54,382 nucleotides of DNA from Clostridia bacterium (lineage in GTDB: Bacteria; Bacillota; Clostridia; Oscillospirales; CAG-272), in NCBI GenBank assembly GCA_017646005.1, contig JAGCNJ010000075.1, positions 1 through 54,382 on the forward strand, read 5' to 3'. The position numbers and the translations under genes were made by a program. Below are positions 12,974 through 32,146 of the stretch, piece by piece (the stretch's first letter is position 1; each line of letters starts with the position of its first letter). The notes beneath the pieces were generated by a model that was given only the letters and a program-made list of their open reading frames with translations, ran no database searches and was not told where the DNA came from.

Positions 12974-13006
12974 ACTGTTGTAAACTATTCACATGGGAGA
13001 GATCAA

Positions 13007-13378: not shown

Positions 13379-13380
13379 AA

Positions 13381-13400
13381 AAGTCCTTTGGATTGGACTT
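13381..13400. terminator. short bidirectional stem-loop between convergent genes
   Basis: AAGTCC-TTTGGATT-GGACTT with an A-run upstream and TTGTTTTT downstream. The stem is only 6 bp plus A:T extensions. Confidence 0.45.
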
Positions 13401-13406
13401 TTGTTT

Positions 13407-14276: not shown

Positions 14277-14371
14277 TGTCTTTCTCCTGCTATGGTTATG
14301 TATGTAAGAATTATACCACAATTATCTTGCCCTTTCAAGAGGGTAAAAGGAATTTATTTACTTAGTTTTGC

Positions 14372-14399
14372 TTGATTTTACCAAAAAATATGGTATACT
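14372..14399 (+). promoter_or_regulatory. candidate promoter for bcp
   Basis: TTGATT (14372-14377), 16-nt spacer, TGGTATACT extended -10 (TATACT 14394-14399). Confidence 0.5.
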
Positions 14400-14435
14400 A
14401 TTATAAAAAGGCGAATTATTGAAAGGAAGATCGTT

Positions 14436-14885
14436 ATGGAAACAGGAATGAAAGCACCGGACTTTACCCTTGAAGATAAATTTGGGAACAAGGTATCCCT
14501 GTCTGATTTTCGGGGCAAAAAAGTCGTATTATACTTCTACCCGAAGGACAACACCCCGGGATGCACAAGGCAGGCTTGCGCGTATGCGGGCATCTATAAA
14601 GAATTTGAAGAAAAGGGTGTTGTTGTAATCGGAATCAGCCGTGACAGCGTGGCATCACACGAACGTTTTGCCGAAAAATACTCTCTTCCCTTCATTTTGC
14701 TTTCCGACCCCGGTCTTGAAGCCATAAAAGCATACGACGTATGGCAGGAAAAGAAGCTTTACGGCAAAGTAAGCTTTGGTATCGTGCGTACCACGTTTAT
14801 CATAAGCGAAGACGGCTATATTGAGGCAGTCAAAAGCAAGGTAAAGCCGGACACCGACGCCGAGGAAATACTCGCAACAATTTAA
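14436..14885 (+). CDS. bcp: thioredoxin-dependent thiol peroxidase (peroxiredoxin Bcp)
   Basis: 149 aa. KAPDFTL..., KVVLYFYPKDNTPGCTRQAC active-site motif. Confidence 0.9.
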   Translation: METGMKAPDFTLEDKFGNKVSLSDFRGKKVVLYFYPKDNTPGCTRQACAYAGIYKEFEEKGVVVIGISRDSVASHERFAEKYSLPFILLSDPGLEAIKAYDVWQEKKLYGKVSFGIVRTTFIISEDGYIEAVKSKVKPDTDAEEILATI

Positions 14886-14903
14886 CACGGCAAGCATAAA
14901 AAA

Positions 14904-14927
14904 ACGCAACTGCAGATGCAGTTGCGT
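14904..14927. terminator. bidirectional intrinsic terminator between bcp (+) and the ABC operon (-)
   Basis: ACGCAACTGCA / TGCAGTTGCGT stem, AAAAAAA upstream and TTTTTTGTTTG downstream. Confidence 0.8.
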
Positions 14928-14940
14928 TTTTTGTTTGTGT

Positions 14941-15990
14941 TTATCCGACGATACCCGAACGCTCGATACCCTGGATAAGATATCTCTGGCAGAAGAGGTA
15001 TACTACAACCAACGGAGCTATGATAAGAAGACCGCAGGTATTTCTGATCGCCGATTCATAAAGCTCTTGTCCTGCGTATACCGTATCAATACCCTTGGGG
15101 ATCTTAACGATACTCGGCAGAAGCTTGATGCCTGTACCGGTGAAGAATACTGTCGAATAGAAGTTATCTGTCCACTGCCACGAGAATGAGAAGAGGAAGA
15201 TCGTAATCATCATCGGGATCGACAGAGGAAGGATGATCTGAATAAAGGTTCTGAACACACCGCTTCCGTCGATGTAAGCGGACTCTTCAAGCTCATCCGG
15301 AACGCCGCGGAAGAACTGACGCATCATAAAGATGTAAAGACCGTTCTTGAACGCGAGACCGCCGAACGAGAGAAGGGCAAGCGGCCAGTAGGAGTTAAGA
15401 AGGTTGATTGACGAGAAGTTAAGAATCTTAAAGCCTTCGAATACTCCTCCGCCTAAGAAGTTAAACAATCCAAGAATATCAAAATACTTGAAGTGCATAA
15501 ACATTGAAAGCTGAAGTGTCTTATGCGGTACAACCATTGTTAAGATAACAAGCGCAAATATAAGCTTGGAGCCCTTGAACTTGAACTTAGCAAGACCGTA
15601 ACCGATTACACAGCAGATAAAGGTCTGCACAACACCGCAAAGTACGGAAAGGGTCAACGTATTGAACAACGCCGACATATATCCGTTCTGTGAAATTATC
15701 TGTGCGTAGGTATCAAGCGTCGGATACTTAGGAATAAGCTTTACCGTAACGTCTACAAAGTCTGATTTGCTCATAAACGATCCGGATATCTTGGAGAAGA
15801 ACGGATAAAGTATTACATACGCGATACCTATAAGCAACACGAATCTGAATACTGTCCATACCACATCTGTAAGGAAATTAAGCGTAAAATACTTTGCCTT
15901 GATTCTTTCGAGCAGGGGAGTTCTTTCGAATTCAACTCTGATCTTATTTTTTGTTTCTTTTGTCACCTTAGGTGCCTGTTGAGCATTCAT
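14941..15990 (-). CDS. carbohydrate ABC transporter permease (MalG/CUT1 type), second pair
   Basis: 349 aa, 6 TM. EAA-loop region EESAYIDGSGVFRTFIQIILPLS. SD AAAGGAGGGGAG. Confidence 0.9.
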   Translation of the reverse strand: MNAQQAPKVTKETKNKIRVEFERTPLLERIKAKYFTLNFLTDVVWTVFRFVLLIGIAYVILYPFFSKISGSFMSKSDFVDVTVKLIPKYPTLDTYAQIISQNGYMSALFNTLTLSVLCGVVQTFICCVIGYGLAKFKFKGSKLIFALVILTMVVPHKTLQLSMFMHFKYFDILGLFNFLGGGVFEGFKILNFSSINLLNSYWPLALLSFGGLAFKNGLYIFMMRQFFRGVPDELEESAYIDGSGVFRTFIQIILPLSIPMMITIFLFSFSWQWTDNFYSTVFFTGTGIKLLPSIVKIPKGIDTVYAGQELYESAIRNTCGLLIIAPLVVVYLFCQRYLIQGIERSGIVG

Positions 15991-16005
15991 CTTTTCTCCC
16001 CTCCT

Positions 16006-16989
16006 TTAATCACGTTTCTGATAGAACACGAACGCACCAAGTATACCCGATACCGCAGCGATTATAAGCAATACGAGCAAGAAGTATACCCAGGACATCG
16101 CGCCTGAAAGAACGTCGTTTTGTGTATATACGTTCTGAATATAACGCATAACGCTGTTAGATTCAGATGTAAACGAGTCGATTACCGTATACACGGTATT
16201 TACAAGTATCATCGGGCTTACCATAGGAAGCGTTATCTTCCAGAAGGTTTCCCATGCGGTTGCTCCGTCTATTTCGCAGGATTCATATATAGCCGGCGAA
16301 ATGGACTGAAGTCCGGCAAGGAATATAAGCATCTGTACGCCCGAACGGTTGATGATGTTATAAATGTTATTGATAAGATTTATAACGTAATCAACAAGCT
16401 CTGTACCCACCTTCATATTTGCGAAGAGGTTTTCGAAGTCTACCGCCGAAATAATCTGCGTTACACCGCCTGTTGAAGCACCCGTTTCAAATGAAGCGTC
16501 GCTGTTCATGTAGTTCATGAACGTGTTGTTCTGTGTATCAATACTTTCTACGATACCGGTTGAAAGAATAACCGGGATGAAGAAGATCGCACGGAATGCG
16601 GCACGTCCAACCATTTTCTGGTTAAGCAAAACTGCCATGAACAGTGAGAAAATTACGATTGCGGGTATATCGAAGATAAGCTGCTGAATACCCGAGCTGA
16701 GAGTCTGAACGAAGTTCGGGTCCTCGAAGAATGCCTCCTGATAATTCTGGAGTCCGACAAATTCGAGGTAATATCCGCCGCCGGGGATTATCTTGATCAC
16801 GTTGAAGCTATAGTTGATAGAATCAAATATGATCGGAAGATAAATGATCAAAAAGCTGATAATGAACGGAAGAACGAATATGTAACCTGCACGTGCCTTT
16901 CGTTTGTCAAGAGATGCACCGCGGCTTTTCTTTTTTCCGATGTTTTTCTTATTGTAAATATCATCATAAAGATTTGCCTGTTTATTCAC
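16006..16989 (-). CDS. sugar ABC transporter permease (MalF/CUT1 type), second pair, with a divergent hydrophilic loop
   Basis: 327 aa, GTG start with AAAGGAG 10 nt upstream. EAA region YESCEIDGATAWETFWKITLP. An unusual ~70-aa loop spans aa ~146-217 (STGIVESIDTQNN...NIINRSG). Confidence 0.9.
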   Translation of the reverse strand: MNKQANLYDDIYNKKNIGKKKSRGASLDKRKARAGYIFVLPFIISFLIIYLPIIFDSINYSFNVIKIIPGGGYYLEFVGLQNYQEAFFEDPNFVQTLSSGIQQLIFDIPAIVIFSLFMAVLLNQKMVGRAAFRAIFFIPVILSTGIVESIDTQNNTFMNYMNSDASFETGASTGGVTQIISAVDFENLFANMKVGTELVDYVINLINNIYNIINRSGVQMLIFLAGLQSISPAIYESCEIDGATAWETFWKITLPMVSPMILVNTVYTVIDSFTSESNSVMRYIQNVYTQNDVLSGAMSWVYFLLVLLIIAAVSGILGAFVFYQKRD

Positions 16990-17007
16990 TTTAATACATC
17001 TCCTTTC

Positions 17008-20000
17008 TTACTTTATCTTGATGAAGCCAAGATCCTTAACAGTGTAGTCTACACCGTCATACTTGACAGTTACATCAAAGCTGTTGAAGTTAAGAATGAA
17101 CTTAACGCCGTTTGAATAGGTTACGACTGCGATCTTACCCTCATCGGTAGTATACTTTGTTCTTACGTAGCCTTCAGTTTCTTCAACAGGCTTTTCTTCG
17201 GATGCAAGGTATTCTTCCTTATTAAGGGTTACCGTTTCAGGATTCTGACCGTTTCTGCGAGCCTCAAGCTTAAGTCTCTTGAGAGCCTTCTGATACTTAG
17301 CCTCATCTGCCTCAGCCTTTGCTTCAGCTGCTGCTTCTGCTTCGAGTCTGTCATCCTCTGCTTCTTCAGCAGTAGGAACACGCTCACCGAGTATAAACTC
17401 ATGATCATCGATCGTTGCGGTCTGACAGTCGTTTAACGCCTCGTTAACCGTATTGTATACGCTTACAAGGTCGTCGTACCAGATGTCAAAGCCAACCGAG
17501 TAGTACTTATTAAGATCCTCGGATTCCTTAAGAAGTCCTGTATTCTGCGCAGAAAGCACGAAATAGATTGAGGATCCGCTTTCGATAGACTTAAGTATCT
17601 GATAGTTGATATCGCCTGCCATATTCGTTGCTGTACCGGTAAAGGTCTTGTAGCCGTGAAGCACCATTCCCATAAACGGTACAGATTCGCTTGTGCTTAA
17701 ATAGTTACTCGAGTCAAGCGGTACGTTGAGATAGTAGTCAGCATAGCCGAGCGAATATGCATTGGCTGAATCTGAAAGTACGTTTTCGTAATCGGTCGAA
17801 GCCTTTTCAAAAACGTTCTTTGTAAGCTCCTTGGAATCCTCTCTGTTGTAAGGATCCTTCTTGTTGAAGTCCGAGTTAAGATCACTTCCGAGTGTAGACA
17901 GAGCCACGGAGGGATTTTCGAACTTGGAATAGTTATTTGTGAACTTATCGTAAAGTCTTTCAAAGGATTTGGGGGAGATTGCAAGCGTTGTTGTCTTTTC
18001 GTAGCTCTGGAGAGTCGAATCGTAATAACGCTTGGAGGTATAACGGTTATCCATGGTCTTTACAAGATCCTTGTTGGAAATACCGTCGGAATTTCCCGCC
18101 TTCTTGAAGTATACGAAATCGAAGTCGGGGAATACGAGTATTCCCTTTTCGTTTGCATACTCAAGGAATTCCTTAAAGCCGTTGTTTCCGCCAACCGACT
18201 TATCGAACTTGACCTTATAAGGAACTGTGGATACCATACCGCCGTTAGCAAAGCCTGTAAGCTTGAAGTTAATGTTGGTGATATCAGCCTCATTAAGCTT
18301 TTCGTTCATATTTACAAGGTCATCAAAGGTTGTAAGCTCTTCAAGAACTGTTACAGGAAGAGTTGCGATACGCTTGGTCGTTTCAACAGAACCGAAGGAT
18401 TCGATGAAGAGAGGAATATCCTTCTTTACGTCATCCTTGGTCATGGGGGAGATAACTCCTGTATCCTCAAGGTAATCACGGTAAGCGTGAGCCATTCCTA
18501 CCCAGCTTGCCTCGTACGTATCCTTTGCACCCTTTTCCTCTGCGACCTTTGCATCGTTGATCATAATGTACTTGATACGGTAGCTTCCCGTGTACTTACG
18601 GTCTGATACGATTGTATGGATAGCATTACCGCCGATCGAGATCGATTCGGAAAGGTTGTATGTATCCTTAGGTCTGGGAGCGAATGCTGTATACGCTGTG
18701 AAGTAATCGTGGAGAGTACCGCCGTTTTCAGCAGTAATGTTTGCAAGCGAGTCGCCCTCATTGATTATTGCGATAAAGCCGACTGCCGAAGGTGTTTCCT
18801 CAACGTAGGTTTTGGTTACCATCTGCTCTACGAGAGAGGAAAGTCCGGTTTCCTCATCAATAACCTCTACCTTATCAAGCTCCTCTACCTGATACTCTGT
18901 CTTTATCATATTGTTATGAACGACACCGTATACAGGCATATGCATGATCTCCTGGTGAGCACCGCTTACCTTCTGATAAGCGTAGTCCTGACCGTAGATC
19001 GTGTTGGTAAGAGTAATAGCCTCTCCGACGAACTGAGCGGGACGGATTATTGCACCGCTTCCGTCGGGGATAAGGATCTCACCGTCGTGCTCTGTTGTAC
19101 CTGCACCGAAATAGGGTAAGATCTTTACGTTTGTAAGCGAGTAAACGGTTTCGTCAAATCTGATACCGTTTGCAGGAAGTCTTACGTCAAGATTTCCGTC
19201 ATCGTCGATCGAGTACTCAAGAGCCATTCTGAACAAGGGGGGCGACTTTTCGCTTCCCTCATACTTGGTGAGCTCATGGTCTGCGTCGAGCATTTCAAAC
19301 GTATAGGAAGGAGCGTACTCCTTGATATAGTTTTCAAAGCGGTCCTTTTCCTTGGACGTTGCCTTCGGGTCGAATACGTAAACTGCCATTTCCTCTGTGA
19401 TAGGCCATGTGTTACGCATTTCTCTGAGCTGACGGTCTGTAAGACCTTCGCCCCACGGGTCCTTAAGCGAATAGTAAACGCTGAAGTCGAGCGCTACCTT
19501 ATCATCGGTCATATGAGCAAGGATGTTATTTTCAAAGCTTTCCTTTTCTATAAGGTAAGGCACCAGACGGCGTGTTACCTGCTCACCGATGATATATTCA
19601 ACACGGACACCGGATTTTGTTTTCTTAACCTTGATCTGATTTCTTACTGCAGCTGCGGAATAGCTGTCAAGGATCTTTTCAACGCCGTTTTCCTCATACG
19701 AAATGATGAGCTGGCTCATAAGCTGATTCTTGATATTATCCGAGCCTGCAGTGCTTGCAATATCATAGGGGTTGGAAAGGAGTATCTGCTCGGTTGCAGT
19801 ATCCTTGAAGGCAATCTCGCCCGAAACGCGGTCGATATAAAGCTGACTGCCATTCTTTTCAAGGATAAGCTCCATTGATTCAACCTTTTCGATCTCCGAA
19901 GCATTCTTTATCGAAAGATAATCGATCTCTTCCTCTTCAGCCGCAAACGCGGGAAGCGTTGCTACTGTGCAGATAATCAGCAGTAAGGAAAGAAATGCTG

Positions 20001-20022
20001 TAAGCTTTTTATTGAATTTCAT
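17008..20022 (-). CDS. secreted 1004-aa uncharacterised protein (I believe DUF5696-like); possible glycan-active enzyme
   Basis: Signal peptide MKFNKKLTAFLSLLLIICTVATLPAFA/AEEE. Motifs ILPYFGAG, ILIPDGSGAIIRP, MPVYGVV, FPDFDFV, VPFMGMVLHGY. Ala/Glu-rich linker (EAEAAAEAKAEADEAKYQKALKRLKLEARR) followed by a small C-terminal beta-rich module. SD AAGGAGGG. Confidence 0.8.
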   Translation of the reverse strand: MKFNKKLTAFLSLLLIICTVATLPAFAAEEEEIDYLSIKNASEIEKVESMELILEKNGSQLYIDRVSGEIAFKDTATEQILLSNPYDIASTAGSDNIKNQLMSQLIISYEENGVEKILDSYSAAAVRNQIKVKKTKSGVRVEYIIGEQVTRRLVPYLIEKESFENNILAHMTDDKVALDFSVYYSLKDPWGEGLTDRQLREMRNTWPITEEMAVYVFDPKATSKEKDRFENYIKEYAPSYTFEMLDADHELTKYEGSEKSPPLFRMALEYSIDDDGNLDVRLPANGIRFDETVYSLTNVKILPYFGAGTTEHDGEILIPDGSGAIIRPAQFVGEAITLTNTIYGQDYAYQKVSGAHQEIMHMPVYGVVHNNMIKTEYQVEELDKVEVIDEETGLSSLVEQMVTKTYVEETPSAVGFIAIINEGDSLANITAENGGTLHDYFTAYTAFAPRPKDTYNLSESISIGGNAIHTIVSDRKYTGSYRIKYIMINDAKVAEEKGAKDTYEASWVGMAHAYRDYLEDTGVISPMTKDDVKKDIPLFIESFGSVETTKRIATLPVTVLEELTTFDDLVNMNEKLNEADITNINFKLTGFANGGMVSTVPYKVKFDKSVGGNNGFKEFLEYANEKGILVFPDFDFVYFKKAGNSDGISNKDLVKTMDNRYTSKRYYDSTLQSYEKTTTLAISPKSFERLYDKFTNNYSKFENPSVALSTLGSDLNSDFNKKDPYNREDSKELTKNVFEKASTDYENVLSDSANAYSLGYADYYLNVPLDSSNYLSTSESVPFMGMVLHGYKTFTGTATNMAGDINYQILKSIESGSSIYFVLSAQNTGLLKESEDLNKYYSVGFDIWYDDLVSVYNTVNEALNDCQTATIDDHEFILGERVPTAEEAEDDRLEAEAAAEAKAEADEAKYQKALKRLKLEARRNGQNPETVTLNKEEYLASEEKPVEETEGYVRTKYTTDEGKIAVVTYSNGVKFILNFNSFDVTVKYDGVDYTVKDLGFIKIK

Positions 20023-20042
20023 AAATCATTTCCCTCCTTAAA

Positions 20043-22178
20043 TCAGAATCTGTACGCTATTTCCGTGATTATGTCTGCGATAAAGCTCATAATCTTGGTA
20101 AGAAGCGTTGAGAACAACAATGCTACGAACATGATTACAGCCATACCTACGATCGTACCGAGTGTGGTAAGAATGTTCTTGGAGAAGGTGTAATCGTGTG
20201 TTACCTGGGATGCGAAGAATATAAGCATTCCCGCCCAGACAAAGCCGATCGAAATAAGAAGGTTGATTATAAGTCCTTCGTTCTCGATAGCGAAGTTTGA
20301 ATAGATCGTCGCAGGTACGATGAACATTGCAAGAGGTGCAAGAGCATAGGAGGTTGCGATGAACACATCCTTGAAGCTTCCTTCACCGTCAAAGAGTGTT
20401 GTAAGACACCAGTTAGCGGTTGTCCAGAGTACAAGCGGTACTATTACGGAAATTATCTGAATGAATATTGTCGAATAGGTATCACGCGGATTGAAGATAT
20501 ATCCTGTACCTATTGACTGATAGAAGAATGCGAGAATTGTTACGATGATCCAGAAGAACGCGCCTCTGAGCGAGCCTCTCTGCTCATGCTTGAGATCCCA
20601 AAAGCCGTCGAACGGGTGGAAAATCAGGTGGAAGGTATAAAGTATCTCTTCCTTGAAGCTCTTGCGTCCAACCTTAAGCGCCGTCGCCTTATTGACCTTA
20701 CCTGCATACTTGAAAAAGAATACGATAAGAAGAATAAGGATCACTGCACCGATCGGGATAAGCACGAAGAACTTGGACATCCACTGAGTTCTGAGTTCCT
20801 TATAGGAATCAGAATAGTTCGTGGTATCGTAAGCCGACTTATAATATGTCAGCGATTCTTCGTAGTCAGCGCTTCTGTAAAGGCTCTTACCGATACCGAT
20901 ATACGCCGAGTCGAAGTTATTGTTTCTCTGAAGGATATCACGCCAGTAGTTGATCGTCTGGTCGTAATTTCTTTCATTTGTGTTCTTGATAGCCGAGATG
21001 AGGAGATCACCGTACTCTGTTCTTCTGAACTTGGTGATATTCATTGCGCTCTTATCAAGAACGAGGATATCGTCACCAAGGTAAGCAATCGCCTCGATCG
21101 AAGAGATGTTACCGAGCTGTGTACCCGAGTCACCGAAGATGTGAAGAAGGTTACCCTCATTATCATAAGTATAAACCTTGCTTCTCTTTTCGTCGATGAT
21201 CGACCATGTACCCTCAGGACCTACTGCAACGTCGATGATACGCGAAGCACCGGTGATAGTTGCTGTGGAAAGGTTAGATACGTTAACCTCACCGCCGGGT
21301 CCGAAGAAGCCGTTACGCTTCATTATATCGTTACCCTTGGTATTGAGAAGTTTTACAGGAGCATACTTACTTTCCTTGCTTGTAATAGCACCCTGCTGAG
21401 AGCTTTCGGCAATACTCGAGGTGGTAACGTAGATGAATCCGTTGGAATCCATCGTGATGTTGTTGTACTCTGTCGAAACGTAAGCCTGAGACTGAGCACG
21501 CTGTTCAGCGGTCATAAATCTTCTCCAGAAGATATCAAGCGCGCTGATCGAAACCTGCTGTGCGCCGACAAATCCCTGGAATATGCCGTCCTCATTGATA
21601 GCGATGACACCCATGTAGGTTGTGGACGATACTACGTAAATTCTTCCGTAATCGTCTACTGCTACCGCTACCGGCTTGTAGATAGAGCCTTCGGGGAAAA
21701 CGTCTGCGTCGGGCTCTTCTATAGTCTTATAGAAGCTGCCGTCAATGTTGAACATTACGATTCTCTTGTTATCTGTATCAGCAACGTAGATCTTGTCCTT
21801 TGCTACGAATACACCGGAGGGGCCGGCAAGAGAGTCGGGAACACCGTGTTCGTTTGTGAAGGTGCTTATTATGAACTTTACGTTGAAGAAGCTGTTCATA
21901 ACCACTACCTGGTTGGATGATCCGAGCACGAGATATACGTTTTTATCCTTATCAACGAACATATCTCTCGGGTCAACGATTTCAACGGGGTCTCCGTCGT
22001 AATAAATGTTTGTAGAATCAATGATTCTGTCCGGCACGTATGCATCAGGCGATACGAGAGCAAAGCCATCGATCGAATATGTGTACGTGCTGTAAGGAGT
22101 GATTGCGTTTACCGGGATGCTTCCGAGAAGCATTAAAAGACAAGCGGCAAAGGCAAGTATTCTTGCAAATTTTTTCAT
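20043..22178 (-). CDS. signal peptide + NHL-repeat beta-propeller + TPR-like segment + TM + C-terminal Yip1-type polytopic membrane domain
   Basis: 711 aa. NHL-like blades (IYVADTDNKRIVMFNIDGSF, RIYVVSSTTYMGVIAINEDG, VYTYDNEGNLLHIFGD, ILVLDKSAMNITKF). TPR-like YIGIGKSLYRSADYEESLTYYKSAY. TM FFVLIPIGAVILILLIVFFF. Then PFDGFWDLKHEQRGSLRGAFF plus about 5 TM, typical of Yip1 domains. SD AAGGAGG. Confidence 0.8.
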   Translation of the reverse strand: MKKFARILAFAACLLMLLGSIPVNAITPYSTYTYSIDGFALVSPDAYVPDRIIDSTNIYYDGDPVEIVDPRDMFVDKDKNVYLVLGSSNQVVVMNSFFNVKFIISTFTNEHGVPDSLAGPSGVFVAKDKIYVADTDNKRIVMFNIDGSFYKTIEEPDADVFPEGSIYKPVAVAVDDYGRIYVVSSTTYMGVIAINEDGIFQGFVGAQQVSISALDIFWRRFMTAEQRAQSQAYVSTEYNNITMDSNGFIYVTTSSIAESSQQGAITSKESKYAPVKLLNTKGNDIMKRNGFFGPGGEVNVSNLSTATITGASRIIDVAVGPEGTWSIIDEKRSKVYTYDNEGNLLHIFGDSGTQLGNISSIEAIAYLGDDILVLDKSAMNITKFRRTEYGDLLISAIKNTNERNYDQTINYWRDILQRNNNFDSAYIGIGKSLYRSADYEESLTYYKSAYDTTNYSDSYKELRTQWMSKFFVLIPIGAVILILLIVFFFKYAGKVNKATALKVGRKSFKEEILYTFHLIFHPFDGFWDLKHEQRGSLRGAFFWIIVTILAFFYQSIGTGYIFNPRDTYSTIFIQIISVIVPLVLWTTANWCLTTLFDGEGSFKDVFIATSYALAPLAMFIVPATIYSNFAIENEGLIINLLISIGFVWAGMLIFFASQVTHDYTFSKNILTTLGTIVGMAVIMFVALLFSTLLTKIMSFIADIITEIAYRF

Positions 22179-22192
22179 TATTCTTTACCTCC

Positions 22193-23065
22193 TTAGTCCT
22201 TCATACCCGAAGAGCCCATCGTTTCGATGATGTTACTCTGCGAAATTACGAATACCGTGATCGGAACGAGCATCATTACAACCGTAGAAGCCGCACCTGC
22301 ACCGGCACGCTGAATACCGCCGGCAAGGATCTGGCCGATAGCGTAGTTGAATGTCTTGAGCTGTTCGGACTGGATATATACCGAAGCACCTGTGTTCCAG
22401 AGCCCCTGGAAGCAGTAGATGATAAGTGTAAGCCATGCAGGCTTAACCATCGGCATCGCAATCGTTAAGAACGTATTAAACTCTGTTGAGCCGTCAAGTC
22501 TTGCAGACTCAAGAACGGCATCTGTGATGTTCGATTCCATAAACTGCTTCATAAGGTAAAGTCCAAGGCTCGTACACCAGGACGGAATAATGATAGCAAG
22601 ATATGTATCTACCCAATGGAGTGTACTCATCGTAATGAAGTTACAGATACCTGTTACGGTAGCGTGGAACATAAGCGAGAGGACAACCATCTGGAACATC
22701 CAGTTTCTGCCGGGGAACTTGATCTTCGAAAGCGCGTAAGCCGCGAGTGACGAAAGAATAAGGTTACCGGCTGTACCGAGTATCGAGATGAATACGGTAT
22801 TGAATATGTATCTTGAGAAAGGTACCCATGAGTCGCCCATAAGCTTAAAGAGGTCACCAAAGTTCTTAAGCGTAGGACTTATAACGTAGAAACGAGGGGG
22901 GAACATCCAAAGCTCGTCAAGGGGCTTGAGCGACTGCATAACGACGTAAAGCATCGGTAAGAACATGAACGCGCCCATTAATACGAGGAGGGTTGCAATG
23001 CCCGCGTCACCGCCTGCAGAGCGGTTAAGAACGACCTTATGTTTTCTCGTTCTGAGCTTAGCCAT
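22193..23065 (-). CDS. carbohydrate ABC transporter permease (MalG/CUT1 type), first pair
   Basis: EAA region LESARLDGSTEFNTFLTIAMPMV. ATG at 23065 preferred (GGTGG upstream, 1 nt after the upstream stop). The track ORF uses GTG at 23074. Confidence 0.9.
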   Translation of the reverse strand: MAKLRTRKHKVVLNRSAGGDAGIATLLVLMGAFMFLPMLYVVMQSLKPLDELWMFPPRFYVISPTLKNFGDLFKLMGDSWVPFSRYIFNTVFISILGTAGNLILSSLAAYALSKIKFPGRNWMFQMVVLSLMFHATVTGICNFITMSTLHWVDTYLAIIIPSWCTSLGLYLMKQFMESNITDAVLESARLDGSTEFNTFLTIAMPMVKPAWLTLIIYCFQGLWNTGASVYIQSEQLKTFNYAIGQILAGGIQRAGAGAASTVVMMLVPITVFVISQSNIIETMGSSGMKD

Positions 23066-23066
23066 C

Positions 23067-24020
23067 TTATTCACCCACCTTCGAAAGTAATTTTTTAATA
23101 ACCATATTAGCGCCGACCATTATCGCGAAGAGCACAACAGCGATAGCAGAGGAATAACCTACCTCAAAACGCTGTCCGCCGTAGTCTTCAAGATGGTGCA
23201 TGATTGTATGCGCTGCATAGTCAACAGACGGGAAGCCTGCAAGCGCTGTTACGACACCGCCAAAGCCGAACGAGCCTGTAATTGACATTACGGCACCGAA
23301 CATAAGCTGAGGACGCATCGTAGGAAGCGTTACGTACCAGAGCTCCTGCCATCTGTTTCTGATTCCGTCAACCGCCGCTGCCTCATAAAGGCTCTTGTCT
23401 ACGCCCTGGAGACCGGCGATAAAGGAAAGGAAGGATGTACCGAGCGAGGTCCAGAGAGCAACTACGATACAGAGACCCATAACGTATTCTGCGTTCTGGA
23501 ACCAGAGCACGGGGGCTGTTATGAAGCCAAGCTCCATAAGCCAAGCGTTAACGTAACCATAGGAGTCGCCCGAGAAGAGCACGCTCCAGATAAGGTATAC
23601 CGAGCCCGAAATACTCGGTGCATAGAAGATAAGAGTTACGATAGCTCTTATTCTGGGGGAAAGCTCGTTGATGAACCACGCAATAAAGAGTGACATCAAG
23701 TATGAAACCGGTCCTGTAATCGCAGCGAATACAAGTGTATTCTGACAAGCGATAAGGAAGATATCATCGTCAAGGAACAGTCTTATATAGTTATCCATGA
23801 AGATGAATTCCGGAAATTCGAGAAGATTGAATCTTGTAAAGCTCAAGACTATCGACATTCCGACAGGCAGGACTGTGAAGATGAAGAATAATATCATGAA
23901 GGGCGCGACCATCAGATAAGCGGTCTTGTTGCGCTTGATCTCCTTCATTGTCCACTGCCATTTTGTCATGTCTTTACGTGATACCGGCCTTTTTACCTCG
24001 GCCGCCGTATTCTGTGACAT
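23067..24020 (-). CDS. sugar ABC transporter permease (MalF/CUT1 type), first pair
   Basis: 317 aa, 6 TM. EAA region YEAAAVDGIRNRWQELWYVTLP. SD AAAGGAG. Confidence 0.9.
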   Translation of the reverse strand: MSQNTAAEVKRPVSRKDMTKWQWTMKEIKRNKTAYLMVAPFMILFFIFTVLPVGMSIVLSFTRFNLLEFPEFIFMDNYIRLFLDDDIFLIACQNTLVFAAITGPVSYLMSLFIAWFINELSPRIRAIVTLIFYAPSISGSVYLIWSVLFSGDSYGYVNAWLMELGFITAPVLWFQNAEYVMGLCIVVALWTSLGTSFLSFIAGLQGVDKSLYEAAAVDGIRNRWQELWYVTLPTMRPQLMFGAVMSITGSFGFGGVVTALAGFPSVDYAAHTIMHHLEDYGGQRFEVGYSSAIAVVLFAIMVGANMVIKKLLSKVGE

Positions 24021-24058
24021 GTGTTTTTCTCCTTTATATAATATATCTGTCAGTTAGC

Positions 24059-27000
24059 TTACTCTTTTGTACCTTCAGCCGCTTCTCTTGCGCGCTTTTC
24101 TGCAAGAGTTTCACCAAGCTCAAGCGTTTCGAGGTCGAACTCCTCACGCTTTCTTGTGATTTCCTTGTTGATGTCGTCGATATAACCGAGCAACGCTTCA
24201 ACAGGGTCAGCCGAGTTATTGTATGCGTCAAGGAACGCGAAGTTCGTATAACGCGCAATAATGTATCCGCCCGGATACTCAGGTACAGCAGAAAGACTCT
24301 TGAACTGTTCCATAATATTATTATAATCGCTGGTTGCCCACGGGAGCGATTCAAGTGCTTCGATGTTAGCGGTTGCGTACATCGCGCCCTGACCGATCGT
24401 TGCAACGACCTCGTTTGCGTAAGCAGCCTGAATATCAGCTGTTACAAACCAATCCATGAAGTCCCATGCCTTCTGCTTGGTTTCTTCATCCTTGATACCT
24501 GCCATCATCATCATAGGTGCAACTGCGGTAAGCGAATCGTTGTGGATCACACCGTTTTCATCCTCATATCCGAGAAGCGGTACGAATTCCCAAAGGTCGC
24601 GTATTTCTGTTGCGAAGATGGTAAGCTGGTTATAAGAGCCTACGTAATCCGAGAAGCCTAAAGGAAGCTCACCCGTTCTGAAACGGTTAGCAAAGTCATA
24701 GGTTACGGGGAAGCCGTAGTTTGTGAAGTATGAGCACATTGTATCGAATGCTTCAAGCGAAATGTTTGAATCGTATCCGATTCTCATACCGTCGTCCGCG
24801 TAAACCTCACCGCCCATCTGATAAAGAAGGAGGTTAAGTCCGCCTGACGATGACGGGATTCCGACTTCCATATTATTATATTGAAGGATCGGTACTATAG
24901 CCATAAGCTCATCCCAGGTGCGCGGGATATCGAGTCCGAGCTCTGCGAATACGTCCTTACGGTAGAACATCATAGAGAAGGACATCGTTTCCGGGATACC
25001 GTAGGTGTCGCCGTAAAGTGTAAGCGGAACCATAGCAGCCTTATCAAATCTCGAAACGACCTCGTCAAAGGTATCGAAATCATTAAGCTTTACTACCGCA
25101 TTACGGATCGCATACTGGATCGGGTCACCCTGACCGTTTGTAAGCGAGATAGCAGGTCCTGCGCCCGAAAGCGTTGCGGGAAGAAGTGTACCTGCCGCGA
25201 TAAGCTTAAGGTTTACACCGATATTCGTTTCGTTTGTGAACTTATTATCTATAAGTCCGCGTACTATCTGAGCCTGGTCACGACCGCCCGAGATCCATAC
25301 CTCAACGACGTCATCCTTATCGATCTCTCTTGTTGCACCGAGGTTACTGTAGTCGGTGAAGAAGCTGTTGAAGAAGGATGAAAGCTCATAGCCGGCAGAT
25401 TCAAGGAAGCTTGCCTTTGCCTTGGGCATACCCTTTTCATTATCAACAGGGCAGATCGAAATATAGTCAAAGTAAAGAGGCTGGTTCTGAGAGCTGTTGA
25501 TCCATGTACCGAGAGTACCGATATAGCTCTTCATTGTGGAAAGGTTTCTTGCAACCTCATCCTCATCTGTAGCCATCTTATAAAGTGTACGCGAAATATT
25601 TGCAAGCGACGCGGAGTTACTGCTCTTCTCGCCGCTTATTTCGACGAGCGTATCCGAAATACCTGTGAGCACCTGGCTTTGATTATAAAGGTCCTTGATT
25701 ATCTCGGGAATGAGGACGTTAAAGTTATAATCACGGTAAACGTCGGGGTCGGCACCTGTGATCTGGAGGATCTTAAGGTAATCCGAGTTCATCGAGCTCA
25801 TGGAGTTACTTGCTTCTTCGAGGATGTCGCCTACATGACCGAGGGCAACCTCAAATTTAAGCGTATATTCTTTACCTTCTTCAAAGTAGAACTGGAAAGT
25901 GGTATTGCCGTCTCCGAGAGGTGCTGCCTGCCACTCGTCGACATAGTTGAACTGGCAATAATTTGCCTCGTCAAAGGGTATTTCGTCGTTTATGTAAAGA
26001 CGACGTGTTACGTATATACCGCTGAGGTCGGACTGCTTGAAGCGAGGAGCAATGTAATAAAGACCGCTTTCCTCGCAGGTGAAGCTGTATTCAATCCACT
26101 GACCTACAGACTGCCACTTTGTACCGCCGATAGCGTTCATCTTCGTCTTAGCTGCATGCTGAGGCGAGGTGATGGCAGACGTTCTGTCGTTTACCGGGTA
26201 TATAGTTCTGTCGGAAACCGCATCGGGAAGCTCAGCTTCGATCTTAATAGCCTCGCCTGCCGCGGATGTGTAACCCTTCTTTGCGTATTCCTCGGTTACC
26301 TCAACATAGCTCTTTGCGCTCTCAAGCGGGAAGAATTCGATGGTCTTTACAACCATTTCATCTCTTGCCGCCTCAAGTGCAAAGGTATGCTCACCCTCGG
26401 TGAATACGATTTCGTAAGGATATACGTCATATCCTGTAGAGTCGTTGAAGGTGTAATATTTCCATTCGGGAGCCTCATAGAGGTTAGGCTTGATATCGTT
26501 TCCGTTGATATCGGTCTGGAAAACGAAGGAGCCGTCCTCTGCAACACGAAGTCCGTTTTCTGTTTCGGAAAGTGCCGTTTCGGGATCGAACACCGTGGAA
26601 ACCCAGTTCTTCGTGAGCGTGAGGTATCTGAGTCCCTTGAAGGGATACTCGCCGTCGATAAGGCACGCTCTTTCAATGGATGTCGATTTCTGATTGCCGG
26701 TAGAAGTGTAATAAATTCTTACAGCATATTTACCGGTCTTTTCGAAATTGACCTTCCAGGTTACCGAGCCGTCAGACGGAAGGAAGAGTGCTTCTCCGTC
26801 CTCGCCGTTATAGTCCTTGACGACCTCAACGGCAGCGTCGGTCAATTCTGCATCGTAATCGACCGCGTTAACCACAACTGTACTCGTTGCCTTGGGAACC
26901 CTTGCGTTTCTGGCGGTATATTCGGTATATGTAAGCGCATTGAGAAGCGCCTTTACTTCTTCAATGTCGTAGGACATAACCTTTTCCGCCGGTTGCTCGG

Positions 27001-27094
27001 TTTCGTCCGCAACAGCCGTAAAGCTGAAGCAGGTAACAAGCATCAGAAGTGAGAGTATCGCGGCGATTAACCGTGTTAATCTCGTTCTTTTCAT
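24059..27094 (-). CDS. very large extracellular solute-binding protein: signal peptide, ~500-aa N-terminal region with two beta-sandwich (CBM-like) modules, C-terminal family-1 SBP domain
   Basis: Preferred start MKRTRLTRLIAAILSLLMLVTCFSF (ATG 27094, GGAGG 8 nt upstream); the track ORF starts at 27112. CBM-like stretches: VTWKVNFEKTGKYAVRIYY and GQWIEYSFTCEESGLYYIAPRF. SBP part: YGIPETMSFSMMFYRKDVFAELGLDIPRTWDEL. Confidence 0.85.
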   Translation of the reverse strand: MKRTRLTRLIAAILSLLMLVTCFSFTAVADETEQPAEKVMSYDIEEVKALLNALTYTEYTARNARVPKATSTVVVNAVDYDAELTDAAVEVVKDYNGEDGEALFLPSDGSVTWKVNFEKTGKYAVRIYYTSTGNQKSTSIERACLIDGEYPFKGLRYLTLTKNWVSTVFDPETALSETENGLRVAEDGSFVFQTDINGNDIKPNLYEAPEWKYYTFNDSTGYDVYPYEIVFTEGEHTFALEAARDEMVVKTIEFFPLESAKSYVEVTEEYAKKGYTSAAGEAIKIEAELPDAVSDRTIYPVNDRTSAITSPQHAAKTKMNAIGGTKWQSVGQWIEYSFTCEESGLYYIAPRFKQSDLSGIYVTRRLYINDEIPFDEANYCQFNYVDEWQAAPLGDGNTTFQFYFEEGKEYTLKFEVALGHVGDILEEASNSMSSMNSDYLKILQITGADPDVYRDYNFNVLIPEIIKDLYNQSQVLTGISDTLVEISGEKSSNSASLANISRTLYKMATDEDEVARNLSTMKSYIGTLGTWINSSQNQPLYFDYISICPVDNEKGMPKAKASFLESAGYELSSFFNSFFTDYSNLGATREIDKDDVVEVWISGGRDQAQIVRGLIDNKFTNETNIGVNLKLIAAGTLLPATLSGAGPAISLTNGQGDPIQYAIRNAVVKLNDFDTFDEVVSRFDKAAMVPLTLYGDTYGIPETMSFSMMFYRKDVFAELGLDIPRTWDELMAIVPILQYNNMEVGIPSSSGGLNLLLYQMGGEVYADDGMRIGYDSNISLEAFDTMCSYFTNYGFPVTYDFANRFRTGELPLGFSDYVGSYNQLTIFATEIRDLWEFVPLLGYEDENGVIHNDSLTAVAPMMMMAGIKDEETKQKAWDFMDWFVTADIQAAYANEVVATIGQGAMYATANIEALESLPWATSDYNNIMEQFKSLSAVPEYPGGYIIARYTNFAFLDAYNNSADPVEALLGYIDDINKEITRKREEFDLETLELGETLAEKRAREAAEGTKE

Positions 27095-27361
27095 AAAAAT
27101 TCCTCCTGCCAAGATACTTTGAAGAGAATCTGGTCAAACTTTGAAATCAAATATACCAAGCCGGTCCGGACATCGCGCACACGCGCGTATGTGTGTCACT
27201 CGTACACGACCGTCCCTGCATTTTGCCTCACAGCAGAAAACAAAAGCCAATCTCACGTGCATTTCCCGAGGCTTATTTCGCACATATGAGATAAGCTTTT
27301 TCACTTTCGCCGCAAAGCCGTTTTTGCACAGCTTGTCAGCATACTTGATTTACATATTATT

Positions 27362-27390
27362 ATAATACCACATCGGAAAATAAATGTCAA
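27362..27390 (-). promoter_or_regulatory. candidate sigma-A promoter of the seven-gene ABC operon (implies a ~255-nt 5' UTR)
   Basis: Minus strand reads TTGACA (27390-27385), a 17-nt spacer, then TGGTATTAT extended -10 (TATTAT 27367-27362). Confidence 0.55.
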
Positions 27391-27736
27391 TACAAACAAA
27401 AGATATTAAATCTGCCACACTTCGCCGAAAGGCGACAAAGTACACACTTTCCGATGTTTTATCTGGCCTTTTTTTCTCTTTGTCACATTTGACGTTTTTT
27501 GAAATGTTACCAAGAAACCTTGTCAGTAATTAAAATTTACCTCATTTTTCTTGTTTAACCAGCGTTTTCTGGTATTTTTTCTCGCAAAATACGTTTTGGT
27601 AATTATTATTTACTATTTTTCAAGAAAAAAATTAAGATTTTTCCGTCTTTTTCCATATTTGTGTTTCGTCATTATGCACAAATTTGATGATATTTTTTCT
27701 ACATATGCGCAATTTGCACAAATAACAAAAATCAAA

Positions 27737-27769
27737 ACCGCGACGGGCGTTCCTTGCGCCTGTCGCGGT
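27737..27769 (-). terminator. intrinsic terminator of the nifS-nifU unit
   Basis: Minus strand reads ACCGCGACAGGCG-CAAGGAA-CGCCCGTCGCGGT followed by TTTTGATTTTTG, 20 nt after the nifU stop. Confidence 0.8.
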
Positions 27770-27789
27770 CTGTTTCGGGTATATTTGTA

Positions 27790-28221
27790 TTATGCGTCAT
27801 GCTTGCCGCAGCTGTGGCAATGTCCGTCGCATCCTACGTTAATATTGTGCTTGATTCCATTATTGTCGTAATAGTTGGCGATTGCGCTCTTTACAGCCTC
27901 TTCGGCAAGCACTGAGCAGTGTATCTTCGCCGGCGGAAGTCCGTCAAGCGCTTCAATAACCGCCTTATTTGTAAGCTCAAGCGCTTCCGATACCTTCTTG
28001 CCTTTTATCATTTCGGTAGCCATACTGCTTGTAGCTATAGCCGCACCGCATCCGAATGTTTTGAACTTCACGTCAACTATCACGTCATTTTCAATTTTAA
28101 GGAATATCTTCATTATATCTCCGCAAACGGCATTGCCTACTTCACCTATGCCGTCCGCATTTTCGATCTCACCAACGTTACGGGGATCGGAAAAATGGTC
28201 CATGACCTTTTCGCTGTACAT
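27790..28221 (-). CDS. nifU: Fe-S cluster assembly scaffold (NifU/IscU N-terminal-domain type) with a Cys/His-rich tail
   Basis: 143 aa. GNAVCGD, FKTFGCGAAIATSS and HCSVLAEEA scaffold cysteines. C-terminal GCDGHCHSCGKHDA. Confidence 0.9.
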   Translation of the reverse strand: MYSEKVMDHFSDPRNVGEIENADGIGEVGNAVCGDIMKIFLKIENDVIVDVKFKTFGCGAAIATSSMATEMIKGKKVSEALELTNKAVIEALDGLPPAKIHCSVLAEEAVKSAIANYYDNNGIKHNINVGCDGHCHSCGKHDA

Positions 28222-28244
28222 ATATTTACCTCCGTTTTATTATA

Positions 28245-32016: not shown

Positions 32017-32030
32017 AATAACAAGGCAAA

Positions 32031-32064
32031 AGAGGAAACGGGGCTGCCGTTTCCTCTTTTTTTA
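32031..32064 (+). terminator. strong intrinsic terminator between the response-regulator and kinase genes
   Basis: AGAGGAAACGG-GGCTG-CCGTTTCCTCT (11-bp perfect stem) followed by TTTTTTT. Confidence 0.8.
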
Positions 32065-32082
32065 TATATTTGCGTATATTTA

Positions 32083-32111
32083 TTGATTTAATGAAGATTT
32101 TGTGCTACAAT
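32083..32111 (+). promoter_or_regulatory. candidate separate promoter for the histidine kinase gene
   Basis: TTGATT (32083-32088), 17-nt spacer, TGCTACAAT extended -10 (TACAAT 32106-32111). Confidence 0.5.
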
Positions 32112-32146
32112 ATGTTATGTATAGTTATAAACCGGAGATAATGACG

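Follow-up and report, generated by a model that had tools for sequence, protein, structure and literature searches.

A conserved seven-gene operon of Bacillota with two CUT1-type permease pairs, a giant solute-binding protein, an NHL-TPR-Yip1 protein and a predicted DUF5696 glycosidase

Introduction

Why would one bacterial operon hold two pairs of ABC permease genes, a single giant solute-binding protein (SBP) gene and, between the pairs, the genes of two large envelope proteins? The question is raised by a 54,382-nt stretch of Clostridia bacterium DNA (hereafter the window; contig JAGCNJ010000075.1, assembly GCA_017646005.1), for which a preliminary description had proposed one composite machine that takes up a complex glycan or other polymer and, to its author's knowledge, had never been characterized; our own search of the accessible literature likewise turned up no characterization of this seven-gene operon type. 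Marion et al. are said to have described, in 2011, CUT1 importers (TC 3.A.1.1) of Streptococcus pneumoniae that work with a shared MsmK-type ATPase, and the beta-mannan locus of Roseburia intestinalis is reportedly a Gram-positive polysaccharide utilization locus (PUL; La Rosa et al., 2019). To our knowledge, characterized Gram-positive PULs are equipped with a single SBP and a single permease pair and contain neither DUF5696 nor NHL-Yip1. Here we argue that the operon fairly probably encodes a module with which glycans are captured at the cell surface, cleaved and imported, and that it represents an old and widespread Bacillota type.

Operon organization and upstream signals

An open reading frame check of the 54-kb window recovered all seven genes previously described between 14941 and 27112 on the minus strand, as one putative operon (Table 1). 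The SBP frame first opens at TTG 27112, and the ATG at 27094, with GGAGG 8 nt upstream, is the likely translation start. SD sequences of the GGAGG or AAGGAG type precede six genes; the remaining gene, P1b, overlaps P1a by 8 nt, with an alternative start at ATG 23065. On recount, the intergenic spacers agreed exactly with the earlier figures: from SBP to P2b, they measure 38, −8 (+1 if P1b begins at ATG), 14, 20, 18 and 15 nt, with the 14-nt spacer, which has no terminator, joining the two halves of the operon at the P1b to NHL-TPR-Yip1 junction. The reported absence of an internal terminator also stood, as hairpins inside the gene block were weak and a scan of 13000-29000 gave 20 terminator-like matches, not clearly above the 13.2 ± 3.7 from shuffles. 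At the operon end, the hairpin of the bidirectional terminator was confirmed; it sits between P2b and the convergent bcp/AhpC gene and is common to both. Beyond these limits, housekeeping genes flank the operon: iscS-nifU, RNase H and ychF lie to one side, and bcp, a MATE transporter, ETF and pheST to the other.

Table 1 Coordinates of the operon genes and their regulatory features in the window.
Feature	Coordinates	Strand	Description
Giant SBP gene	24059..27094	-	solute-binding protein, 1011 aa
P1a gene	23067..24020	-	MalF/UgpA-like permease, 317 aa, EAA loop EAAAVDGIRNRWQELWYVTLP
P1b gene	22193..23074	-	MalG/UgpE-like permease, 293 aa, EAA loop ESARLDGSTEFNTFLTIAMP
NHL-TPR-Yip1 gene	20043..22178	-	membrane protein, 711 aa
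DUF5696 gene	17008..20022	-	predicted secreted protein, 1004 aa
P2a gene	16006..16989	-	MalF/UgpA-like permease, 327 aa, EAA loop ESCEIDGATAWETFWKITLP
P2b gene	14941..15990	-	MalG/UgpE-like permease, 349 aa, EAA loop ESAYIDGSGVFRTFIQIILP
Conserved upstream cis-element	27695..27721	-	TTGTGCAAATTGCGCATATGTAGAAAA, ~600 nt upstream of SBP start
Sigma-70-like promoter	27362..27390	-	TTGACA-17-TATTAT with TG, 11/12 matches
Bidirectional intrinsic terminator	14899..14932	.	15-bp stem, 6 GC pairs, A-run before, T-run after

Upstream of the operon, the promoter-like element noted before was found again, ~265 nt from the SBP ATG; the region between the two is 75% conserved relative to L002, the closest genome locus holding it, and an Rfam search of this leader returned no match. 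Farther upstream lies the cis-element, which occurs once in the window (0 expected) and has a second TTTGTGCATAAT copy at about 27683-27668. Of the 62 related loci with sufficient upstream DNA, 52 keep the element on the same strand, 535-875 nt ahead of the SBP gene. It may serve as an operator or as an unusual promoter.

Synteny among relatives and the two permease pairs

Gene order is retained in all 80 close loci retrieved, nearly all from uncultured Clostridia, and all seven genes are present in 65 of them; the operon organization is thus beyond chance, and the gene-neighborhood comparison proposed in the preliminary description came out strictly in favor of a syntenic unit. The module of this subfamily is present in at least 529 species-level genomes. 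Seven orthologues in identical order also occur in cultured Butyrivibrio fibrisolvens (pNP243) and Paenibacillus cellulosilyticus (on a plasmid), whose DUF5696 proteins match that of the window end to end at 24-26% identity (E 1e-184 to 1e-187), and whose records carry, literally, the labels "YIP1 family" and "DUF5696" beside ABC permeases that the preliminary description had mentioned. Across 72,556 plasmid records, DUF5696 and NHL-Yip1 each matched the same two.

A diverse set of 80 metagenome loci resolved the operon further. In 54/54 of the loci counted, NHL/Yip1 immediately precedes DUF5696 (roughly half of the diverse loci encode it as separate NHL and Yip1 frames), and P2a-P2b follows DUF5696 directly in 58/62. 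The invariant core is therefore NHL/Yip1-DUF5696-P2a-P2b, with the giant SBP and P1a-P1b as a separable second module, so that the idea of one composite machine is borne out for the core alone. Similarly, a single binding protein for two translocons is what the window's clade has, but as a derived state, given that most distant relatives add an ordinary SBP after P2b.

Functionally, all four permeases match BPD_transp_1 and the UgpA/UgpE/MalG NCBIfam models and contain EAA coupling loops, which makes two sets of CUT1 membrane subunits. The sets are divergent (24% identity between P1a and P2a, 22% between P1b and P2b, with a longer external TM3-TM4 loop in P2a), which indicates that the permease duplication is ancient and that both copies have been maintained. 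Median orthologue identity is 70% for P1a (67 orthologues), 75% for P1b, the highest conservation of any gene in the block, 63% for P2a and 66% for P2b. As previously stated, no ABC ATPase is encoded across the 54-kb window; the orthologous Paenibacillus locus is immediately preceded by a UgpC/MsmK-like ATPase gene, and locus L058 has a match to this gene at its upstream end.

Do the two pairs work together? In six diverse loci the SBP-P1a-P1b triad lies downstream rather than upstream, in at least six it is absent, and of 39 testable diverse loci 25 have both kinds of SBP and 6 only the ordinary one after P2b; together with the 22-24% identity of the permease pairs, these observations fit an operon of two independent importers, in which SBP-P1a-P1b would be self-sufficient and NHL/Yip1-DUF5696-P2a-P2b would serve another substrate through an SBP encoded elsewhere, with no functional or physical cooperation. 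We regard this as unlikely, however, as the halves adjoin in most loci of Bacilli and Clostridia alike (65/65 complete close loci, 29/39 of the diverse loci that could be tested, and the two cultured genomes), are joined without a terminator in the window's clade, and include a P2a/P2b pair that stays well conserved there although no SBP of its own is found nearby. Because the giant SBP module can sit elsewhere or be missing in relatives, the data do not oblige the two translocons to cooperate.

The DUF5696 protein

The predicted secreted protein belongs to DUF5696 (PF18952, E 9e-133), a family of 5,428 clusters at 50% identity (2,864 of those at E<=1e-30) for which our literature search found no publication. 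In this protein, the N-terminal beta-sandwich is followed by a (beta/alpha)8-like barrel at about 481-877, then by a clade-specific coiled-coil insertion at 878-950 and by C-terminal beta strands. Structurally, the AF2 model is of moderate confidence (pLDDT 67, pTM 0.61, from a 20-sequence alignment) and has the GH129/GH101 arrangement of beta-sandwich, (beta/alpha)8 barrel and C-terminal beta domain. Foldseek placed GH129 first (5opq/8rzk, E 6e-24; NagBb, E 2e-18), followed by GH101 (E about 1e-11) and then GH31 and GH36, with target TM of 0.60-0.65 for GH129 and 0.26-0.34 for GH101 (probability 1.0); at 9-11% identity, the likeness to GH129 and GH101 is at the fold level only. A sequence-profile search of the PDB at E<=10 returned NagBb alone, faintly (E 3.2), and Pfam searches with 20 DUF5696 members at E<=10 gave nothing besides DUF5696, hence no GH family membership.

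Six aligned sequences from three branches of the family share the invariant residues E269, D320, D346, D646, D718, R727, N754, H789, N800, E814, W848 and H874 (window numbering), and the PDGSG and YGxD motifs are likewise invariant across branches at ~25% identity. Barrel carboxylates together with His, Asn and Arg kept at such divergence form a pattern typical of an active site, with D646, D718 and E814 as candidates for the catalytic nucleophile and acid-base residues. Given a model that resembles GH129, GH101, GH31 and GH36, the "secreted unknown" of the preliminary description is probably the glycosidase of the locus, and the earlier view that the window lacks a glycoside hydrolase is, judged by fold, wrong.

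Alternatively, DUF5696 might be a catalytically dead lectin or scaffold, a glycan receptor that passes substrate to P2a/P2b with the NHL propeller while other enzymes cleave. The missing GH family membership would fit such a protein, as would the fact that no nucleophile and acid/base pair was mapped onto GH129/GH101, the position of its gene before a MalF/MalG-like pair, which mirrors that of an SBP gene, and the lack of an ordinary SBP for P2 in the window's clade. We consider this improbable: the invariance of residues and motifs just described speaks for catalysis, and a surrogate receptor is unneeded in most relatives, where an ordinary SBP follows P2b.

The NHL-TPR-Yip1 protein and the giant SBP

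The NHL-TPR-Yip1 protein starts with a signal peptide (7-25) and an extracellular NHL beta-propeller (about 60-385), followed by a TPR region at about 400-460, a TM helix at 470-488 and, at 517-693, a Yip1 domain of 5-TM topology; the hydropathy profile shows five hydrophobic segments at 535-693. Yip1 (PF04893) is matched over residues 517-686 with 53.4 bits (cut-off 28.6; E 3.8e-14), NHL and SBBP are further Pfam matches, and sequence matches in the PDB are the NHL domains of TRIM71, Thin and PknD as well as TPR proteins. Bacterial Yip1 proteins had been said to have no assigned function, which overlooks YknW, a Yip1-family accessory of YknXYZ: according to PMC4887032, citing Yamada et al. 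2012, YknW is needed for this ABC transporter and is thought to modulate assembly of the complex. By analogy with YknW, and given its place next to DUF5696, NHL-Yip1 may anchor the enzyme. Both envelope proteins may be coupled to the permeases physically and translationally.

In the giant SBP, a signal peptide is followed by two CBM6/35-like beta-sandwiches (about 73-255 and 283-417), by a helical bundle (419-536) and then by a family-1 oligosaccharide SBP domain (about 596-965), with a conserved helix at the C-terminus; most orthologues lack a canonical lipobox. Pfam assigned residues 610-900 to SBP_bac_1 (E 1.9e-17) and SBP_bac_8 (E 9.5e-18), and Foldseek with the AF2 model (pLDDT 78) found SBPs for cycloisomalto-oligosaccharide, beta-1,2-gluco-oligosaccharide, cycloalternan and maltose (TM 0.7-0.77), both identifying the extracellular family-1 SBP of a CUT1 system. 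For the N-terminal region, the structure check suggested in the preliminary description gave a CBM35/6-like model, with weak Pfam matches among orthologues to CBM_35 in 13/25 (best 3e-6), Golvesin_C in 20/25 and also CBM_6.

Carbohydrate context

In a minority of distant relatives, genes of carbohydrate metabolism recur beside the module: LacI (14 loci), GH130 (10), GH38 (9), GH26+CBM35 (5), GH3 (5) and, once, an apiosidase-like gene. Such loci combine LacI or two-component regulators with mannan or mannoside enzymes. A cytoplasmic GH43 is encoded near the Butyrivibrio locus. Neither in the window nor in its 80 close relatives does a linked regulator of the PUL kind adjoin the module, which extends the earlier observation on the window, and in the window's clade neither glycosidase nor ATPase genes are neighbors. 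Compared with distant relatives, this clade has a pared-down form of the module, from which the ordinary second SBP, the regulator and accessory glycosidases have been lost. With housekeeping genes as flanks, a role in nutrient foraging is here extrapolated from relatives at 25% identity.

One could instead imagine that the window's clade uses the operon for housekeeping turnover or recycling of a surface glycopolymer of its own, such as wall polysaccharide, capsule or EPS, rather than for foraging on dietary or host glycans. The absence of a regulator, an accessory glycosidase and an ordinary SBP nearby, the conserved site beside iscS-nifU, a promoter that looks strong and constitutive, retention in so many species-level genomes of the subfamily and an operon-specific upstream element conserved without a linked regulator would all suit this; but direct evidence for any self-glycan is absent, the nearest structural relatives of the SBP bind exogenous oligosaccharides and distant relatives reside in typical inducible utilization loci, so that we give it little credence.

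Proposed working and comparison with known systems

Thus, we posit that the operon captures, cleaves and imports glycan as follows, where catalysis, substrate, physical contacts, ATPase supply and the role of NHL-Yip1 in this module are what we infer. With its two CBM-like domains, the giant SBP would retain a polymer or large oligosaccharide on the cell surface, and its family-1 domain would hand oligosaccharide to the P1a/P1b translocon. DUF5696, as a distant GH129/GH101/GH31-like (beta/alpha)8 glycosidase, would trim or depolymerize the substrate outside the cell, with alpha-linked sugars suggested as its target by the structural neighbors. NHL-TPR-Yip1 would be a membrane-embedded platform that keeps the anchorless enzyme, and perhaps substrate, near P2a/P2b, which would import the cleavage products, and both translocons would draw their energy from a shared MsmK/UgpC-type ATPase whose gene lies elsewhere in the genome. 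The synteny, the strict adjacency, the GH-like fold and the carbohydrate loci of relatives together bear out the earlier proposal that the two envelope proteins are functional parts, not passengers. More tentatively, and with considerable doubt on our side, NHL/Yip1, DUF5696 and P2a/P2b could form a physical complex, in which the glycosidase is docked via a Yip1 adaptor and cleavage is coupled to translocation; in the window's clade, the assembly of enzyme and propeller, or else the giant SBP, would then feed P2 directly.

Compared with known systems, the operon resembles CUT1/MsmK importers in its family-1 SBP, its MalF/MalG-like pairs with EAA loops and the lack of an ATPase gene in the operon, but differs in having two divergent permease pairs in one operon, a 1011-aa SBP that carries a helical bundle besides its two CBM-like domains, NHL-TPR-Yip1 and DUF5696 between the pairs, and, in this clade, a P2a/P2b pair without its own SBP. 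The Roseburia mannan locus is approached by distant relatives, whose modules occur with LacI, GH26+CBM35, GH130, GH3 and an ordinary SBP, whereas the window's version departs from Gram-positive PULs in lacking a regulator and a recognized glycosidase. In bifidobacteria, mucin O-glycans are handled by extracellular GH101 EngBF or GH129 NagBb together with the GNB/LNB ABC importer (PMC8106489); the shared theme is an extracellular enzyme of GH101/GH129 fold (here predicted) plus a CUT1 importer for the sugar released, but bifidobacteria do not keep the enzyme and transporter genes in a single operon. With Bacillus YknWXYZ, the operon shares a Yip1-domain membrane protein encoded with an ABC transporter; YknYZ, in contrast to the type I importer here, is an exporter of the MacB type that has a membrane-fusion protein, and YknW is without the NHL and TPR ectodomains of the NHL-TPR-Yip1 protein.

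Significance

DUF5696 is linked, gene by gene, to NHL-Yip1 and a dedicated permease pair in Bacillota of gut, rumen and soil. An active glycosidase would make DUF5696 the founder of a new GH family akin to GH129 and GH101, and would account for a recurrent block in the PULs of abundant, mostly uncultured gut Clostridia. Additionally, NHL-Yip1 could show how Gram-positive bacteria hold anchorless enzymes at importers and could become the second documented link between a bacterial Yip1 protein and an ABC transporter. Cultured hosts are at hand in Butyrivibrio fibrisolvens D1 and Paenibacillus cellulosilyticus KACC 14175, which opens the module to direct testing; should the docked complex prove true, it would provide the first function for DUF5696, as a new glycoside hydrolase family, and a general role for bacterial Yip1 proteins as ABC-transporter adaptors.

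A seven-gene operon conserved across uncultured Clostridia

All seven minus-strand ORFs that the preliminary description placed between 14941 and 27112 are present, in the order giant solute-binding protein (SBP), P1a, P1b, NHL-TPR-Yip1, DUF5696, P2a and P2b (P1a and P2a being MalF/UgpA-like and P1b and P2b MalG/UgpE-like permeases), and Pfam and NCBIfam bear out its domain assignments, including DUF5696 and Yip1. Its account of the gene spacing and of the bounding signals also held: the intergenic spacers are 38, −8 (or +1), 14, 20, 18, and 15 nt, the SD sequences read GGAGG or AAGGAG, the promoter-like site is the region's best sigma-70-like site (11/12 matches, with TG), and the bidirectional terminator is of 15 bp. 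Inside the block, terminator-like matches were weak, and across 13000-29000 as a whole they did not clearly exceed shuffle expectation.

Coordinates of the operon genes, associated sequence elements and other genes in the window, with examples from related loci (L-numbers); identities are medians among the close relatives
Feature	Position	Strand	Median identity to window	Detail
Giant SBP	24059-27112	minus	49%	likely start ATG 27094
SBP signal peptide	27013-27094
P1a	23067-24020	minus	70%
P1b	22193-23074	minus	75%
NHL-TPR-Yip1	20043-22178	minus	59%	Yip1 Pfam E 3.8e-14
DUF5696	17008-20022	minus	47%	Pfam E 9e-133
P2a	16006-16989	minus	63%
P2b	14941-15990	minus	66%
Promoter-like site	27390-27362
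Bidirectional terminator	14899-14932
Upstream element, first part	27721-27695	minus
Upstream element, repeat	~27683-27668	minus
Upstream element, L004	2288-2313
Upstream element, L062	2276-2301
Split NHL/Yip1, L083	9813-11908
PAS-GGDEF-EAL protein	1229-3319			left end of window
OmpR-type two-component system	31324-33640
Wzy_C protein and DUF4330 genes	37177-40098

The DUF5696 protein has at least 942 relatives in a 90%-clustered collection, and when one genome per GTDB species was scanned, at least 529 species encoded the window's DUF5696 subfamily; the best 80 loci were retrieved from these, nearly all from uncultured Clostridia of gut, rumen or digester labelled Oscillospiraceae, 'Candidatus Flemingiibacterium' or similar. 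Synteny in other genomes, proposed earlier as a check, was kept throughout these close loci: in 80 of 80, whichever genes are present occupy an unbroken stretch of the SBP-P1a-P1b-Yip-DUF5696-P2a-P2b order on one strand, and 65 carry all seven. Their flanks are not conserved apart from upstream iscS (28 loci) and nifU (20 loci), as in the window; an ordinary SBP follows P2b in two of the 80, and an MsmK-like ATPase match lies at the upstream end in one. One complete operon (L025, JAGARL010000319.1) sits on a contig deposited as 'Methanocorpusculum sp.', an archaeon, and this contig is most likely a binning contaminant in the Methanocorpusculum MAG.

Two ancient permease pairs

The EAA loops are kept in all four permeases, and the P1a/P1b and P2a/P2b pairs share 22-24% identity. 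When 72,556 plasmids were searched with DUF5696 (tblastn), two records matched, and exactly the same two matched the NHL-Yip1 protein. On plasmid pNP243 of Butyrivibrio fibrisolvens D1, divergent HK and RR genes and a GH43 without signal peptide come before a 977-aa giant SBP, a first pair of permeases, an NHL protein, YIP1 as its own ORF, DUF5696, a second pair of permeases, and two lipoprotein SBPs. On the Paenibacillus cellulosilyticus plasmid, a ugpC-like ATPase gene precedes a 986-aa giant SBP, a first pair of permeases, a 719-aa YIP1 protein that combines NHL, TPR and Yip1, DUF5696, and a second pair of permeases. The DUF5696 orthologues are WP_073386913.1 in B. fibrisolvens D1 and WP_110042929.1 in P. 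cellulosilyticus. All seven window proteins have individual orthologues at matching positions in both loci, P1a corresponding to the first MalF-like gene and P2a to the second. Evolutionarily, the low identity between the pairs, together with their separate orthologues in distant taxa, therefore places the duplication before the Bacilli/Clostridia split and rules out a recent one. An exporter or assembly role is likewise ruled out, the BPD_transp_1 subunits with an SBP being importer-type; to our knowledge, such membrane subunits with an SBP are known from importers only. That the two pairs serve two independent importers is unlikely, if not negligibly so.

The NHL-TPR-Yip1 protein starts with a signal peptide, followed by a six-bladed NHL-type propeller and TPR repeats; a single TM helix then leads to the 5-TM Yip1 domain. 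All parts are conserved to a similar degree. In about half of the diverse loci described below, the NHL/TPR ectodomain (~490 aa) and the Yip1 5-TM protein (~210 aa) are separate neighbouring ORFs (L083 and many of L085-L164), a point in favour of both parts working as a complex. By analogy with YknW, described in PMC4887032 as a Yip1-family accessory of the YknXYZ ABC transporter, NHL-Yip1 could tether or organise DUF5696 at P2a/P2b.

DUF5696 resembles GH129 in its predicted fold

In the AlphaFold2 model of DUF5696 (pLDDT 67, pTM 0.61), a beta-rich region at the N-terminus is followed by a barrel of alternating strands and helices (residues ~481-877), a long helix, and C-terminal strands. Foldseek against the PDB matched it to GH129 (5opq and 8rzk, E 6e-24, target TM 0.60-0.62; NagBb, 5wzp and others, E 2e-18, target TM 0.61-0.65), to GH101 (5a57, 2zxq and others, E ~1e-11, target TM 0.26-0.34) and, with weaker E, to several entries of GH31, GH36 and FpGalNase. 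The top matches (GH129, GH101, GH31, GH36) are (beta/alpha)8 glycosidases for alpha-linked sugars, and these four families are retaining enzymes. A profile of 20 DUF5696 members found no PDB match at E<=1 and two only at E<=10, both GH129 NagBb, with the profile stretch 'LTTFDD...KLTGyANGG...GGnkGF' aligning to NagBb 293-360; at the sequence level this points, weakly and independently, to the same family as the fold. Scanned against Pfam at E<=10, 20 members matched no GH model.

Judged on 81 close sequences and a six-sequence alignment that included two cultured orthologues, the invariant residues are E269, the PDGSG and YGxD motifs (D320, D346), D646-G647, D718, R727, N754, H789, N800, E814, W848, and H874; offsets taken from the NagBb alignment did not place the catalytic residues among them unambiguously. 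We consider it improbable that DUF5696 is non-catalytic. The coiled-coil at 878-950 (~80 aa) is an insertion particular to the window's clade, and the final beta strands are common to other branches. The family as a whole forms 5,428 clusters at 50% identity, and many relatives (P0367-P0508) are 1200-2545 aa long, with long C-terminal extensions beyond the DUF5696 region that could be anchors, CBMs or further enzymes. Lipoprotein anchoring was rejected as a general feature of DUF5696, a lipobox-like motif occurring in just 2 of 81 sequences.

The giant SBP and the upstream region

In its model (pLDDT 78), the giant SBP has two beta-sandwiches and a helical bundle between the signal peptide and a family-1 SBP domain whose nearest structures (Foldseek) bind cycloisomalto-oligosaccharide, beta-1,2-gluco-oligosaccharide, cycloalternan, and maltodextrin. 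This domain dominated the whole-protein Foldseek search, which taught us nothing about the N-terminal domains, and the sandwiches have sub-threshold CBM_35, CBM_6 and Golvesin_C Pfam matches in most orthologues, so that the N-terminus is a putative CBM. Lipoprotein anchoring fails as a general feature here too: a good lipobox (L-[IVA]-G-C) was present in 8 of the 65 scanned sequences, at a position where the window reads LVTC. Whether the giant SBP is lipid-anchored seems to differ from species to species.

The SBP gene is preceded, at a distance of ~600 nt, by a conserved element of ~60 nt (TTGTGCA-nn-TTG-n6-TGTAGAAAAAA), with a second copy (TTTTGTGCAAAAT, also written TTTGTGCAAAAT) ~42 nt past the first copy's start. 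Within the window the element is found once; among related loci 52 of 62 have it, in every case on the operon strand, and the Butyrivibrio and Paenibacillus loci lack it. Its spacing, as read from the sequence, does not fit a sigma-70 promoter, and it may be the operon's operator or an unusual promoter. Rfam gave no match in 13000-29000 at E<=1, hence no known riboswitch or leader and none for this element, and the 700-nt upstream gap held no convincing small ORF. A conserved structured leader RNA is unlikely, because nothing is conserved beyond the −600 element and the RBS region, except for the promoter-to-ATG stretch in the related locus L002.

A probable reduced polysaccharide-utilisation locus

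A metagenome scan seeded by a mixed alignment yielded 80 diverse loci, whose DUF5696 proteins share 26-95% identity with that of Butyrivibrio. In 54 of 54 testable loci DUF5696 is immediately preceded by NHL/Yip1, and in 58 of 62 it is immediately followed by P2a-P2b; the giant SBP-P1a-P1b triad is mostly upstream, downstream in six and missing in at least six others. The sole break seen in the core module is ~3.9 kb of extra genes splitting P2a from P2b in L157, L159 and L151. In most diverse loci a family-1 SBP of ~450 aa comes next after P2b; among the 39 with enough flank, 25 have the giant-SBP module and the ordinary SBP, six the ordinary SBP only, four the giant-SBP module only, and four neither. 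LacI (14), GH130 (10), GH38 (9), GH26 with CBM35 (5), and GH3 (5) recur as neighbours, and one locus has an apiosidase-like gene near the module. Two translocons, two SBPs and these neighbours in the relatives therefore identify the canonical form as a Gram-positive polysaccharide-utilisation locus (PUL) in which each translocon has its own SBP, often linked to mannan/mannoside enzymes. In the window's clade this form is reduced. The DUF5696 there is only ~25% identical to those of mannan-type loci.

The rest of the 54-kb window and its flanks are housekeeping (iscS-nifU, RNase H, ychF, bcp, a MATE transporter, ETF, pheST, trmD/rimM, and the dcw cluster), and no ABC ATPase, recognised glycosidase or adjacent regulator was found in the window. 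A housekeeping role for the operon in the window's clade, the recycling of self-glycans, is about as doubtful as a non-catalytic DUF5696. Straight after trmD come an O-antigen ligase-like (Wzy_C) membrane protein of 630 aa and two tandem DUF4330 genes, all unrelated to the operon. The window also encodes a PAS-GGDEF-EAL protein (c-di-GMP turnover) and an OmpR-type two-component system, with no recurrent linkage to the operon across related loci.

Functionally the module resembles a CUT1 importer set in a Gram-positive PUL, but it differs from every characterised example that we know of or found in its two ancient permease pairs in one operon, its ~1000-aa putative CBM-SBP fusion, its obligatory NHL/Yip1-DUF5696 pair and, in the window's clade, its lack of a second SBP, regulator, and accessory enzymes. 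Searchable full text, with most subscription journals outside its coverage, held no study of DUF5696 or related gene combinations. With gene content, conservation, folds, and the carbohydrate-locus context of the relatives established, the best-supported reading, and one we consider reasonably probable, is that the operon is a surface module for glycan capture, cleavage and import. DUF5696 would hydrolyse the glycan outside the cell and the giant SBP would feed P1a/P1b, while the translocons would be energised by a shared ATPase of the MsmK/UgpC type, which adjoins the Paenibacillus locus, is absent from the window, and would be supplied from elsewhere in the genome.
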